DNA of 64,000 nt. Origin: Escherichia coli (GTDB lineage Bacteria > Pseudomonadota > Gammaproteobacteria > Enterobacterales > Enterobacteriaceae). This document shows positions 51,201 to 57,200 of the stretch, one piece after another. Positions within the stretch are counted from its first letter, which is position 1, and every line of letters begins with the position of its first letter. The stretch is from the NCBI RefSeq assembly GCF_003790525.1, contig NZ_CP033636.1; one strand, written 5' to 3'. The position numbers are program-made.

Positions 51201-54200
51201 TACGCAGGGCAGGTTAACCCGAAATATGGGCAAGAGCCTGGACGTCAGTTTTATACCCATATTTCGGATCAATACAGCCCGTTTTACACCTGCATAATCA
51301 GTCGGGTCAGGGATTCAACCCATGTTCTCGATGGCTTGCTGTACCACGAAAGCGACCTGGAAATCAGGGAACATTACACCGATACCGCTGGTTTCACCGA
51401 TCATGTCTTTGCCCTGATGCATCTGTTGGGATTTGCGTTCTGTCCGCGAATCAGGGATCTCCACGACAAAAAACTGTTTATCAAAGGGAAAGCAGAGAAA
51501 TACCCGGCGCTTCAGTCACTGATATCAACGACCAGCCTGAATCTGAAAGAGATCGAAATCCACTGGCGTGAAGTGCTGCGTCTGGCAACCTCGATAAAGC
51601 AGGGAACCGTGACGGCATCCCTGATGCTGAAAAAGCTTGCCAGCTATCCCAAGCAAAACGGACTTGCCAAAGCACTGAGAGAAATTGGCCGCATTGAGCG
51701 AACCCTGTTTATGCTCGACTGGTTCCGCGACCCGGCTCTGCGTCGGCGGGTACAGGCGGGGCTGAATAAAGGCGAAGCCCGTAACGCGCTGGCGCGTGCG
51801 GTATTTATGCACCGACTGGGAGAAATCAGGGACAGAAAACCGGAAAATCAGAGCTATCGCGCCAGTGGACTGACGCTGCTGACGGCTGCCATATCCCTGT
51901 GGAATACCGTCTATATGGAAAGAGCGGTCGATGCCCTGAAGCGTAAAGGGGTGAAGATCAACGAGCAACTGCTGTCGCATTTGTCGCCGTTGGGCTGGGA
52001 ACACATCAATCTGACAGGTGATTATATCTGGAAAAGCAACCGGATACCGGCTTCTGGTAAGTTTCGTCGGCTAAGACCAGCTAAAGTCGAAAGGTCAAAA
52101 AACAGCCTTAACGTACAATAATTTTCGATATCCAAACTGACCCCGAATACAAGGACAATGCCGGTACCGCCTGATTACTTCTGGCGTCGTCTACAATGTT
52201 ACTCCAGGCATATGCTGCGTCGTCCGGGGTTTGTTTTGGATCTATGTCCAATGTCGGCCAGACGTGGCCCTGATGATTCTTGCCCTTTGTACAGGAAGTG
52301 ATTAAGTGTACTGAGCGTTCAGAGAACATTATCTTCCTTACATACCCATAGAACAGCTTTCTAAGAACGGTGGGCTCGGCTGAAAATTACAAATCAGCCC
52401 CTTTCACGGCATCATTTTGATTCTTCGCGTCTGCCCCAGTAAGATGACCGGTTTTCTGCATGACAGTGTTATTCCTAACAAACGCAACACAAAACCACGC
52501 CAGCCAGAGCAAATTTTTTCATTTGCTGCGTAAAGCCTATTGTTTTCTCTTTTAAGCTTCGCCCACTCGTTACAGAGGGTAACATCATCAAGCGCTGTTA
52601 TATGCTTCGCCTCACCTTCGACGATAACGGTATGGATACCGTATGCTGTAAATCTCATACTATTTTCCAGAACCCAGTTGCGGTATTCGTCGAGTCCACC
52701 TTCGGAACCGGTAGCTCTGCGCCACATTTCAATTTGCTTGTGTGATGGGTCAAGTGTACTTGTCATTGAAGCCTCGTCTCAGCGATAACGCTTGAAATAG
52801 CCCGCTTTGGTCATCATGAAATTAGCCATCTGACTGGCGATTTGATTGTATCTTACTCATAGTGCCCTACCTATAGGTTAAAAAGGGGCATTTTCGCTTT
52901 ATAGCGTGTTCAGCAGCATCAATCCTCCCAAGAAAGGCTGGCTTATTAAGCCGGTCCATCATTTTCTGTATATCTCTCATCAATTTTTATATCCGCCCTG
53001 GAGTGCACCGTTCAAGCACACCGATTAGGCAGATAGTCACTAGTTAACTCTTTACTAGTGACTAAATTCCATTGATATACGTGACAACGTCACGTCATGA
53101 AAGCTTTTAAATGCCTATTTTTCATACAATGGGATTTAATTAGGAGTAAATCCCATAGGCTTACATAAGGATGACAATTAAAAGCGTTAAATATCAACCA
53201 GATAGAATGATTACCCCCAATTAATGGGCTCATCACATTATTTCACTGGCTGGGGTTATTGCTGGCATATCTGAAAGTGCTAATATGTTAGTCATTAGTA
53301 ATTAGTAAAGCCTTTACTAAACGCGTTTCTACGTAATTTCTATAGGTTTTATAGTGTCCTACCTTTGCTCAAATCAAAATGTTCTGACATACCAAAATGG
53401 AGTGTAAAATGACTCAAAACCAGGGTTCTGAGCCAGTACCGGCGAGCCGGACAGGGCAGCTCATCAGCGCCCGGGATATGGCCATGCAGAAATTCGAAGA
53501 AGGGATGCGGTTAATCTCGGAAGCGTCGGAACTGTGCGGTCTCTCTCTCTTCACCAGCAGAATTATGCAGCCCAACGCATTTGGTCTTCCGTCGTCACTG
53601 GATCGCACCATCGAGGAGGGGCGTAAGGAAATTGACCGTAAAACGTGGAAAAGGCTCTTTGAAGAAACAGGTATGGACCGGTACTGGAACCATAAGCAAA
53701 AAGAAGCCTTTAACGAATCCCTTCGTACGGATCCGCCCGTCGCTTCCCTGGAGATTGTTAAGGGAACATTACAGCATGCACTGGCTAACAGACGAGACAC
53801 CCTTGCAGAAGGTTTCGTTGATGTTCTCAACAAGCTTGACCGAAGTTTCAAAAGCAATGCCAGGCAATATACAATGCCAAAAAAGCTTGTTCTTCGGGGG
53901 ATTTTTCCTGGTGTGAACGTGCTGAGGTACAACGGTTTCTCGCAGGACAATCACTTTTGTTTACGCGACTTTGAGAATATTGTATGCATCTGTTCTGATA
54001 CTCCAACACCTGCAACCGGCGGTGGGCTGAGTATGGTCGACAGGCTGACGGCCATGAGAAATACAGAATTCACAGGCGAGGTCAGTGATGAGAATGGCTG
54101 GCGGTGTCGCCTGTTTGAGAATGGAAACGTTCATATTTGCATCGACAGTATCTCGCTTCTGAATGCTCTGAACGATCTTATCAGCATATATTTTGCAAAC

Positions 54201-57200
54201 CAGCTTCCGGCCGCAGGAAAAAAATGATGATTGAAAATGATAAAGAAAAAAGCCTGAACGATGCTACCCCGCCAGAGGTGCAGAATGACATCCGCAGCGA
54301 ATCCACTGAAAAATCAAAGGAAATGGGTCGTTCAAGGTACTCATCTATCGCGATGATCGATTACTTCAATGCAATCGAACGTCTGTGCAAAGAGAAAGAA
54401 ATTAACCCGGAAAATATCGATCTGAGCTTCAAAGTTCACTGGCTCAGAAACGCTGTTGGCGGCTCGTTTGCAAGGTCACAGGAGATGTTCGCGGAGTACC
54501 AGAAGTATGTTAAAGAGGTTCCTGAAGAGGCCCGTTACCTGGATATACCCGATGAGGTAAAGGTTGCACTCGGCGATATTATCTCGTACATCACCTGGCA
54601 CTACCGTAGAAGCTATACCGCAATACAGAATGATAGTGTTAAAAAAGCTGAAGCACGTAGCATGCAGCTGGAGGAGGAGGTAACGCAGCTGTTACAGCGG
54701 CTTGAGCAAAGCGCTACCGATATGGATGAGCTGAAACTTGAGAATCAGGCACTACAGGGTCGATTAGAGATCCGGGACAGTACCGTCAAGGAGTTAGAAA
54801 CAAGGCTGAATGTTGCCGAAGCAGAACTCGAAACCTGCCATCACCAGTTAGATAGCACACGGCATGAATTGAGCCTCGCACAGCAGTCAAATGACTCACT
54901 CTCCCAGCAACTGGCTGAACGTAAAACAGAGATCGCTGGTCACCTTGAATATCAAAAAAAGCTGAACGAAGAGATCAACACGCAGCGTTCTGATAACGCC
55001 GGTCTTTCCAGACAATGCGACCAGTTAAGTCAGACTGTGTCAGATACAAAGGCAGAGAGGGACAGGTTTGAACAGGAATTGATTGCTGCACAGAACCTTT
55101 GTACTGAGCTGAAAAGTGCACTGTCCGGGAAAGAGGGTGACCTGGTGGCGGTGAATGCCGAGCTTACTGAACTCCATAAACTAAACGAGTCGCTGAGCGC
55201 CGACCTGAATAAAGTAACTTTGGTCAGCCAGGGCTATGAAGCGGAAGTGGCTGAACAAAGCAATGAACTCAAAACGCTCCAGGCCAAAGTAATGAAGCTG
55301 GAAGCTACCCTGGAGGCGGAGAAAACAATCTCAGAATCCCTAAAAGGCACCATTGATACATTAACTGGTGCAATGGCAGGGGGAGGTACTGGAAAGTCAA
55401 AACAGCCGCGTAGCAGAAAAACATCATGATAAATGAAGCCAGGTTGATACACTTCTCTGCATCCCCTGGCACATAAGAACTTCTGCGGACATTCAGCCCG
55501 TCCGCAGGAGTTTTCGTCCTTCAGTCAACAAATGCACTACCTTTTTTGAGTCTCCACTTTCCAGAGCAGAAAACACGTTACCGATTCTACCAACAGCTTG
55601 TATCTGAGTGATAACCCCAGTCTTGTAATCATCTAGGATCCCTGACAGGAAAGCGTTCAGTTTTGTCTGTTCGCTTAGCGAAAGCATGTAGGACATTTTT
55701 TCTCCATTTTAAGCAGGTGTGTCAGTTGAAAGAGGTTTGCGTGATTCTGGAAAATGAGGCAGCACCATAGTTTCAGATGCTGTGGTCGCATCCCAGTGCC
55801 ACCATCCATAAGGCCCATATTCACGGTTGTAATAATCTTTTTTGAGTTGCTTTCGGGCCAGATAAGCAGGAGTGGCCATACCAAATACTTCCATCGGGAA
55901 CGGCTTATCGCTTTTTGTGTCGAGCAGGTAGAAGTCAGGGAACACCTCACTAATACTCGCATCATAACGCATGGGCTTAACGTACTGCCGGTGCTCTGCA
56001 TCCAGCTTTTCTGCAACAACCGCCTCATAGGAGGAGTCCAGAGGTATCCAGTTCTCGCTAACGTGCATCAGCACAATTTGATGAGCTCTTACAGAAGGGC
56101 CTCTGCCGGTTACCGCAGCTGGTGACGTCAACGCAAAGACAACTATTTTCGCCCCGGATTTCCATGCTGCGTACTCCGATGAAAATCGTTTCTTTACGCT
56201 ATCCCAATGGACTTCTGAATTGAAAAAAATCAGCGGTAGCCCCCCAAAATTCCGCAGGGGTAAAAATTTAAGTGGCTTCTCATGCTTTTCAGCATCGTAG
56301 CGAGGTAAAACTGACAGGAGCATGAGACGTTTATCACTCATCGCCTGTGATGAAAGACGCTGAATTTGCGACTGAGCGACAGGTTGTTTCGGGTCAGGTA
56401 CACCAATGAATAAATGGTCACCTATGCAGGCTCTGCCGGTACGAATTTGTTTAGCGGTTTCAAGCAGACGATACCGTACCAGTGAATCGTTACGTTTCCC
56501 TGCCATTTTCGGGTACCAGACATTCAGACCAGACTCTGTCCACAAAAGACTAAGCAAGCCCAGGAGGGTCATTGAGGCCTGACCTCCTTCTGGTCGCTGA
56601 ACATGGGGCAGGGGAGGCACTTCTGATTTTTCAGGAGGATCTTTCTCTGTCATACCGATACCGAGCCTTACAGCCATATCACCTTCGGTTGTAATCCGGA
56701 CCACACCACTCGCATATCCTTTCAGGCCGGTATGCCGGGCATCAAGGGAGAAGAATACACAGGAAGGATCATGCTCAATGCCCGTGTTAGCGGCTTTGAC
56801 GAGAATAAAGGCATCACCGTTCGGTAAAGCACGAACATAAAGTCGCTTTTCTCCTTTTCCACGACATCCGCAGGTGATGACTGATTTTTGACCTGAGGTG
56901 TGGTGTGCCTTTTTAAGAGCCGACTGCCACCCTTTAGCAAACTCATCCTGCGTTTGAAAGTCAGGTGAATACCTTTTGACGTTTGGATCGTCGTCGTAAG
57001 CAATCATCACTGCGAATTTTTGGCTCATAGTAGTCTCCTAAACAGGAAGTTTAATATCCCAACCAGAGCAACACTTCCTGAGCGTCATACTGTTCCTTTA
57101 CGCCCATGTCGCTAAAGAATTCTTCGAAATCTGTTTCGGGAACGCAATGCCTGGACAGTTCTTGTAATGCTCGTTCTTTAGATACCGTCTCACCTTCAGC

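Follow-up and report, generated by a model that had tools for sequence, protein, structure and literature searches.

The closest described systems to the locus analyzed here are TlpA of pSLT (PSLT048) and KfrA of the IncP-1 (RK2/R751) and IncU (RA3) plasmids, coiled-coil proteins whose head is a KfrA_N domain (PF11740). KfrA and TlpA are autoregulated via inverted repeats and have thermolabile coiled coils, and KfrA works with partners that are encoded in its own operon (PMC7821693, PMC7783346). The other relevant group, DUF4942 (YdiA), is already known as a Pfam family. We focused on a 64,000-nucleotide (nt) stretch of the Escherichia coli contig NZ_CP033636.1 (assembly GCF_003790525.1; hereafter, the window), in which two overlapping genes, open reading frames (ORFs) 1 and 2, encode a DUF4942 protein and a long coiled-coil protein. 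The pair is a conserved two-gene backbone operon common to the IncHI1 and IncHI2 resistance plasmids. The ORF2 homolog of plasmid R27 was named tlpA decades ago and the backbone is an ordinary one; what is new is that a probably KfrA/TlpA-like, divergent protein is strictly and translationally coupled to DUF4942 behind a conserved palindromic control region.

In Salmonella, E. coli and Enterobacter, plasmids of the IncHI1 and IncHI2 types are major vehicles of multidrug, mcr and carbapenemase resistance, and the majority of the genes in their backbone are functionally uncharacterised. The operon is part of the core backbone of ~1,430 sequenced plasmids and joins two poorly understood groups, the KfrA/TlpA-type coiled-coil proteins, whose role is debated, and DUF4942/YdiA, which is found on at least 5,000 plasmid records and ranks among the largest uncharacterised families with an enrichment in conjugative leading regions. 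The dedicated partner and the defined control region make the IncHI version a tractable entry to DUF4942 function. With both genes annotated, and the locus widespread and dispensable for plasmid stability, we consider the finding useful rather than surprising.

Both genes are real. In comparison with the diverged IncHI2 allele of pEcl4-1, the ratio of non-synonymous to synonymous substitution rates (dN/dS) was 0.094 for ORF1 (9 synonymous and 3 non-synonymous changes) and 0.132 for ORF2 (18 and 9, respectively). These low ratios, together with the adjacency of the genes across lineages and the matching plasmid counts given below, confirmed at the sequence level that both are under purifying selection and are no chance pair of ORFs. 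The ATG of ORF2 overlaps the TGA of ORF1, so that the two genes share 4 nt (ATGA), as an earlier reading of the window from sequence alone (hereafter, the sequence-only reading) had stated. That reading gave the first protein 276 amino acids (aa), the length from the upstream ATG at 53397 (the open frame spans 53397..54227 on the plus strand). The ATG at 53409 is probably the start, because GGAG lies 6 nt upstream of it and PGAP picks the same codon (819 nt, 272 aa, WP_000193209.1), and the length is thus more likely 272 aa.

The two genes are strictly linked. ORF1-type proteins were found on 1147 plasmid records at ≥90% identity and on 280 more at 60-80%, and the ORF2 head on 1147 at ≥90% and 282 below 60%, the lower-identity class in both cases being IncHI1 (R27, pMAK1). 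The genes thus co-occur ~1:1 on roughly 1,430 IncHI1/IncHI2 plasmids. Their adjacency (from a 4-nt overlap to a 5-nt gap) and the wider synteny are kept in four lineages, with ORF1/ORF2 identities to the window of 64/41-45%, 54/27% and 49/29%. The ORF2 family is tiny, comprising 9 clusters in a word-indexed search, and searches of this kind extended no further than the IncHI subfamilies. No ORF2 relative was found in the 100,044 species-representative genomes scanned, and an exhaustive HMMER search of 1.84 billion protein representatives returned 15 matches, all of them members or fragments of the ORF2 family except one. That one, a 1813-aa TPR-repeat protein (P0059) matching the ORF2 head profile, was discarded as a spurious helical match.

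ORF2 comprises a helical head, a long coiled-coil rod and a basic tail. The rod contains no proline and its best hydrophobic period is exactly 3.5 residues, with a periodicity power of 4.29 compared to 0.33±0.20 in shuffled sequences (0 of 1000 shuffles reached that value). The tail is Gly-rich and basic (isoelectric point 11.1). The globular N-terminal domain and the basic tail named in the sequence-only reading were thus recovered, with the coiled coil shortened from ~250 to ~240 aa. In the alignment of homologs, the head has the conserved pattern WLRxxVGGSFxRxQEM...VPEEARxLxIP...ITWYYRxSY, and the rod is variable in sequence and constant in length, with a conserved motif near its end (EATLxAEKTISxSLKGTIxxLTGA). 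Every full-length homolog ends in a basic tail. A P-loop pattern in this tail (AGGGTGKS), found in the two closest homologs alone, accounts for the label "ATP/GTP-binding protein" in some GenBank records. We rejected ORF2 as a P-loop NTPase, the pattern being non-conserved and no NTPase family being matched in Pfam or NCBIfam.

The layout of ORF2, a globular head and then a long tail of alpha-helical coiled coil, is that of KfrA and is kept in all homologs. TlpA and KfrA likewise have a globular helical head ahead of a coiled coil of ~240-250 aa, are plasmid-encoded and are of comparable length (371 aa, 401 aa in ORF2). They share with ORF2, in the same register, the signature LRNxVGG...EYQ...(L/I)PxEV, and have a similar C-terminal LxGxxE[TA]L motif. 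The R27 homolog of ORF2, R0158, is annotated "tlpA", and the authentic TlpA of pSLT carries KfrA_N with an E-value of 5.6e-17. (PMC7074111 also mentions a "tlpA" alongside R27, but that protein has a TIR domain and is unrelated.) A BLASTP comparison of ORF2 with TlpA gave 26% identity over 112 aa (E=0.003) across LRNxVGG..EYQ..(L/I)PxEV. Aligning the ORF2 head with a six-member KfrA_N set by hhalign gave P=0.0046 in the same register, at a probability of just 7.6%. In reciprocal hidden Markov model scoring against shuffled controls, the best empirical p was ~0.001 and 7 of 10 heads ranked in the top 3.3%. The most divergent family member (P0053) matched KfrA_N with E=9.4e-4 and 20.3 bits (cut-off 26.1), and a model of the ORF2 head resembles helix-turn-helix modules. 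These recurrent weak similarities, together with the layout and the R27 gene name, bear out the KfrA-like architecture that the sequence-only reading had proposed. ORF2 is probably a very divergent relative of the KfrA/TlpA type that falls outside formal KfrA_N membership, and its head probably binds DNA through a distantly KfrA_N-like helix-turn-helix, judged from the sequence and the model.

Several results weigh against this assignment and against the function proposed below. None of the 10 ORF2-family heads matched KfrA_N (PF11740), even at E≤10, no member reached the KfrA_N threshold (20.3 bits at best), and the exhaustive search with the ORF2 head profile found no KfrA_N protein. The weakest step in the overall explanation is the role in establishment or methylation, suggested by the genomic associations of DUF4942. 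Differences from TlpA and KfrA are also clear: ahead of the LRN motif the ORF2 head is longer by ~10 inserted residues, and it has an additional conserved helix (ITWYYRxSY); the family is tiny and confined to IncHI-like elements, and the partner gene is an upstream, translationally coupled DUF4942 gene that is not homologous to KfrB/KfrC. No meaningful match was obtained in the Protein Data Bank when ORF1, the ORF2 head, its profile or TlpA served as the query of a sequence search.

The coiled coil alone accounts for the database matches of ORF2 that would suggest anti-phage or anti-plasmid defence, either by an SMC-like protein (as in Lamassu or Wadjet) or by a filament-forming effector, the latter also raised by the sequence-only reading. 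Weak PADLOC matches were to LmuB and JetC, with E=2.4e-7 at best, SMC was matched in NCBIfam, and nucleases, a methylase and HNH genes are located nearby. However, these and the Pfam matches are limited to the rod (aa ~135-380) and are far under the cut-offs (SMC 43.9 bits, cut-off 567); ORF2 has no ABC-ATPase head or nuclease domain, its sole Walker-A-like pattern being the non-conserved one in the disordered tail. ORF1 has no PADLOC match, and DUF4942 is a leading-region family of the invading element rather than of host defence islands. A defence function is therefore very unlikely.

ORF1 is a DUF4942 protein, and not a protein without a nameable family as the sequence-only reading had it. 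It matched Pfam PF13708 with E=2.8e-26 and 92.8 bits (cut-off 25) over model positions 2-187 of 190 and phrog_38825 with E=2e-100; PGAP gives it the same family name, and the core residues are kept with distant members. Many DUF4942 proteins are labelled DNA methyltransferases, an assignment we rejected for ORF1. Neither methyltransferase motif I (xGxG) nor motif IV ((D/N)PP(Y/F)) was found in the protein, which ends directly after DUF4942, and the sequence DPPV at aa 108-111 is followed by no aromatic residue and is not set in a Rossmann fold. The S-adenosylmethionine-binding and catalytic motifs are thus absent. A scan with Rfam gave just a sub-threshold match to Hammerhead_HH9 on the minus strand within ORF1 (53422-53486; 22.1 bits compared to a gathering score of 52, E=0.07), which is most likely due to chance.

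The plasmid records with distant ORF1 relatives (20-26% identity) are mostly those of conjugative plasmids. In pOXA-48-type IncL/M plasmids, a stand-alone DUF4942 gene is found with an antirestriction gene, ssb and Hha, adjoining mobA/traI; in IncK it adjoins mobC/mobA and occurs with ArdA and PsiB/PsiA; and in IncF and MOBP/MPF_I plasmids, orphan DNA methyltransferases are encoded no more than a few kb from DUF4942. These stand-alone proteins resemble ORF1 in that the same Pfam domain covers the whole protein (266-289 aa), in a common core (W80, T87, P110, N150, [NK]G[NST]xH, N255, LP), and in being encoded near DNA-modification genes on conjugative plasmids without methyltransferase motifs of their own. 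They differ in the low identity and in being monocistronic, a few kb from oriT with ArdA, KlcA, PsiB and SSB and with no coiled-coil partner, whereas in the IncHI subfamily ORF2 always follows and MobI/MobH are 35-60 kb away. On the intact IncHI2 plasmid pM160133_p1, for example, the locus is ~60 kb from mobI/mobH, or ~35 kb of backbone when the multidrug resistance (MDR) inserts are left out, and no ssb, psiB or ardA was found near ORF1 and ORF2. Judged by distance and gene content, the IncHI locus is not in a leading region (adjoining oriT, with ssb, psiB, ardA or klcA), where the distant relatives are located.

A second DUF4942 locus on R27 (R27 45191-48288; L011 192-3289) offers a further comparison. 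It comprises R0042, a very highly expressed "DNA-binding protein" of 385 aa with a ParB-type helix-turn-helix, and then R0043, a 558-aa protein in which DUF4942 is fused to an N6-adenine methyltransferase, and a Dam-like gene (R0041) lies just upstream. Like ORF1, the "restriction methylase" R0043 has DUF4942 (E=6.4e-23), belongs to the same plasmid family and has a DNA-binding protein next to it. However, the C-terminal half of R0043 is catalytic and contains motif I (EPNIGHG) and motif IV (NPPF), while ORF1 cannot methylate, and the DNA-binding neighbor of R0043 is ParB-like, unlike the coiled-coil ORF2. DUF4942 is a non-catalytic module that elsewhere is fused to N6-adenine DNA methyltransferases or is located beside orphan methyltransferases and anti-restriction genes. 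Other neighbors of DUF4942 genes also have names related to DNA modification, including DGQHR (DndB-like) in pOXA-48-type plasmids (L005 82-1053), DUF6884 in IncHI1 (L003 6872-7540) and "tgtA5 cluster protein 2" in an IncHI1B plasmid (L009 3888-4268), a hint that these neighborhoods concern DNA modification.

Upstream of the operon, the palindromic region noticed in the sequence-only reading resolved into four palindromes (H1 to H4) between 53030 and 53320 of the window (Table 1), and the region was found in 1122 plasmid records. H1 holds two inverted copies of TAGTCAYTAGT, a motif with 4 matches in the window compared to 0.91 expected, all of them in this intergenic region (in H1 and H4), and an element related to H1 is at the same position in the IncHI1 locus (L003). 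The core of H2, GTGAC-N3-GTCAC, is unique in the window (1 match, 0.05 expected). Its position upstream of the operon is kept in the loci L001, L002, L003 and L004 (the IncHI1 and the 54% lineage included), and the divergent gene on its other side differs by lineage, encoding a 120-aa ORF, a DUF6884 protein or an FRG protein. H3 is identical in L003, and in the 54% lineage (L004) another palindrome (ATGCGATATAA..TTATATCGCAT) is at the same place, so that a symmetric element persists there with a different sequence. H4, conserved in L003 and linked to H1 by direct-repeat families, lies just upstream of a putative promoter; a consensus sigma-70 scan of the intergenic region found no promoter, with totals below the shuffle expectation. 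Folded as DNA, the region 53025-53330 had z-scores of -6.25 (plus strand) and -4.62 (minus strand), with local hairpins only. These scores stem from the four local palindromes on both strands, and a long Frpo-like single-stranded DNA promoter hairpin was rejected; the folding pattern fits operators in double-stranded DNA. The promoters of pSLT tlpA and of three KfrA-like genes had no palindrome in common with the ORF1-ORF2 locus, so the operator sequence is not transferable from TlpA.

Table 1 Positions of the operon, its control elements and its neighbors, in window coordinates unless another record is named.
Feature	Coordinates	Strand	Description
H1 palindrome	53034..53064	.	TAGTCACTAGTTAA-ctc-TTTACTAGTGACTA; 14-nt arms, 93% complementary
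H2 palindrome, candidate operator	53079..53095	.	ACGTGAC-AAC-GTCACGT; core GTGAC-N3-GTCAC
H3 hairpin/palindrome	53129..53156	.	ATGGGATTTA-N8-TAAATCCCAT; 10 nt, 100% complementary
H4 inverted repeat	53288..53320	.	TTAGTCATTAGTAATTAGTAAAG-C-CTTTACTAA; repeats the H1 motif
ORF1	53409..54227	+	DUF4942 (YdiA-like) protein, 272 aa (probable start); Pfam DUF4942 match ~53625-54191
ORF2	54224..55429	+	401 aa, WP_001572381.1
ORF2 head (aa 1-135)	54224..54628	+	variable acidic leader aa 1-35, then conserved helical domain aa ~36-135
ORF2 coiled-coil rod (aa 136-375)	54629..55348	+	proline-free, 3.5-residue periodicity
ORF2 Gly-rich linker, basic C-terminal tail (aa 376-401) and stop codon	55349..55429	+	
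GC-rich hairpin	55483..55507	.	between ORF2 and the 67-aa ORF that faces it in the DUF1173 cluster
67-aa ORF	55493-55696	-	convergent cluster
DUF1173	55709-57028	-	convergent cluster
55-aa ORF	57051-57218	-	convergent cluster
Dcm-type C5 methyltransferase	57279-58748	-	convergent cluster
R27 DUF4942 gene	L012 (NC_002305) 9706-10572	-	in-frame stop

Taken together, we tentatively propose that ORF2 is an autoregulating DNA-binding protein of the KfrA/TlpA class and that its DUF4942 partner serves plasmid establishment, protection or methylation rather than partition; we regard this as the best explanation and as a real possibility, held with less than even confidence. The helical N-terminal head of ORF2 would bind DNA via its predicted helix-turn-helix, and the ~240-residue coiled coil, presumably parallel, would dimerise or oligomerise the protein. 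By analogy with KfrA and TlpA at their own promoters, ORF2 would bind the palindromes ~90-375 bp upstream of ORF1 and autoregulate the operon, and its coiled coil may render the repression temperature-sensitive. Translational coupling would let ORF1 be made in fixed proportion to ORF2, which may act as its regulator, as its DNA-tethering partner in an ORF1-ORF2 complex, or both. ORF1 itself might act on or with DNA or methyltransferases in plasmid establishment or epigenetic protection, a role suggested by the fusion of DUF4942 to methyltransferases elsewhere, or its location beside them and anti-restriction genes.

Published data on R27 bear on the role of the pair in plasmid maintenance. Tassinari et al. 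(2016) deleted R27 in blocks of 5-7 kb, one of which, Del14 (144,480-150,565), removes R0158 (144,482-145,702), the DUF4942 gene (R0159/R0160), the control region and the H-NS homolog Sfh (PMC4853401). Del14 was viable, and the sole loss of stability over seven subcultures in E. coli MG1655 was that of Del16 (incC) (PMC4853401), a result that covers one host and one condition. It counts against the partition or maintenance role considered in the sequence-only reading. In such a role, ORF2 would be a DNA-bound scaffold or filament aiding the segregation of a large, low-copy IncHI plasmid and ORF1 a KfrB/KfrC-like partner. The architecture and the weak KfrA_N similarity argue for such an accessory as they do for our proposal, and so does KfrA, which is postulated to enhance stability, binds partners and segrosome components (PMC7821693, PMC7783346) and has host-dependent effects, so that one negative assay is not final. 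Nevertheless, deleting the ORF2 homolog revealed no stability role, unlike the one postulated for KfrA; no partition genes are adjacent, the R27 partition modules being elsewhere (parA/R0020 and parB/R0019), and the DUF4942 partner is tied to leading regions and methyltransferases and not to segrosomes. We thus consider a maintenance accessory unlikely.

The R27 sequence also bears on a type II toxin-antitoxin-like addiction pair, which would consist of a toxic protein and an antitoxin that binds DNA and represses its own expression. Translational coupling, the upstream palindromic candidate operators and one putative DNA-binding partner would fit such a pair. However, proteins of 272 and 401 aa are far above the typical size, neither protein matched a toxin-antitoxin family of Pfam, NCBIfam or PADLOC, thousands of plasmids carry DUF4942 by itself, and Del14 lost both genes with no stability phenotype. 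In R27 and pMAK1 (L010), moreover, the DUF4942 frame has an in-frame stop (..YKTNA*QFVMPKK..) that splits it into R0160 and R0159, and R27 keeps an intact, highly expressed ORF2 homolog beside this nonsense-mutated gene, so ORF2 is no toxin that depends on ORF1. An addiction pair is highly improbable. No such stop interrupts the gene in IncHI2 or in a cluster of 372 sequences from other IncHI1 copies, and because of the nonsense mutation, phenotypes obtained with R27 say little about DUF4942.

In the R27 microarray data of Gibert et al. (2020), R0158 was at 2355 arbitrary units at 25 °C and at 3819 at 37 °C (1.62-fold), and R0159 (725 and 1932) and R0160 (122 and 325) were both 2.66-fold up at 37 °C (PMC7366339). 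The shift is small (1.62- to 2.66-fold) but in the direction expected of a TlpA-type protein thermometer, which represses in the cold and is released at 37-45 °C as its coiled coil unfolds. For the Dcm neighbor R0154, the level at 25 °C was 4.7 times that at 37 °C (PMC7366339). In the conjugation-derepressed plasmid drR27 at 25 °C, R0154-R0157 were up 4-12-fold, with R0158 at 1.3-fold and R0159 at 1.95-fold. It appears that the cluster at 55493-58748, homologous to R0154-R0157, is co-regulated with transfer and the pair itself is not.

These data could also point to ORF2 as a stand-alone TlpA-like thermosensor that controls other IncHI genes, for example those of thermosensitive conjugation, with ORF1 merely co-transcribed. 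In its favor, the annotation of the R27 homolog reads "tlpA, regulator", the expression of this homolog is high, and that of the operon rises from 25 to 37 °C. The coiled coils of KfrA/TlpA lose their fold at 37-42 °C, and IncHI transfer is thermoregulated (PMC7366339). We find this reading rather doubtful: the candidate operator is confined to the intergenic region upstream of the pair in 64 kb of backbone and MDR DNA, the known IncHI thermoregulation is accounted for by H-NS/Hha and TrhR/TrhY-HtdA, no conjugation phenotype was reported for Del14, and a joint function is favored by the translational coupling of ORF2 to ORF1 and by their strict linkage at 1:1. A bolder form of the proposed regulator-partner operon is a temperature-gated IncHI module, in which a KfrA/TlpA-like thermometer tethers or releases, on plasmid DNA, a DUF4942 effector that tunes methyltransferases or restriction evasion between the transfer state at 25 °C and the host state at 37 °C. 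This is speculative and we think it distinctly unlikely; if true, it would provide the first function for the abundant DUF4942/YdiA family and mean that epigenetic protection is tuned by temperature.

Regarding the wider context, the segment 52800-57100 matched 1177 plasmid records, 824 of them at ≥99% identity, on large conjugative plasmids of Escherichia, Salmonella and Enterobacter that type as IncHI2A/MOBH/MPF_F. In intact backbones, one flank of the pair has small genes and an H-NS homolog, which in IncHI2 are upstream of the pair and fall outside this window. The other flank has the convergent cluster of DUF1173, small ORFs and Dcm, then a thermonuclease gene. The cluster at 55493-58748 is kept beside the pair in all four lineages. 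Between ORF2 and this cluster, the hairpin at 55483..55507 has a 9-bp stem with 6 GC pairs and is followed by a T-rich tail on the minus strand, making it a probable bidirectional terminator that closes the operon, based on its sequence.

On the upstream side, the Enterobacter hormaechei IncHI2 plasmid pEcl4-1 (L023) has an rcnR/rcnA nickel-cobalt module (625-2600) directly upstream of ORF1, and its homology to the window starts ~55 bp before the ORF1 start codon (window ~53356). The palindromes are therefore separated from the operon genes in this Enterobacter IncHI2 lineage. A 14-nt direct repeat, ATAGTG(C/T)CCTACCT, brackets the palindromic region at 52859-52872 and 53351-53364 and is accompanied by neighboring CTATAGGTT and TTTATAG(C/T)GT repeats. 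The rcnRA arrangement has its breakpoint at the second copy, and the bracketing repeat may be a recombination or insertion hotspot. GTGAC-N3-GTCAC also occurs on the IncK2/Z plasmid pXDL-2 (L006 7876-7888), directly downstream of a stand-alone DUF4942 gene and adjoining mobC and the oriT region, which could be a coincidence. Within the window, backbone homology begins at 52142, directly after a Tn3-family transposase gene (49092-52121), and is preceded by an IS26-rich resistance region, with six IS26 copies of ~820 bp each at 14714, 26842, 38121, 41721, 42977 and 47628 (region 14714-48453).

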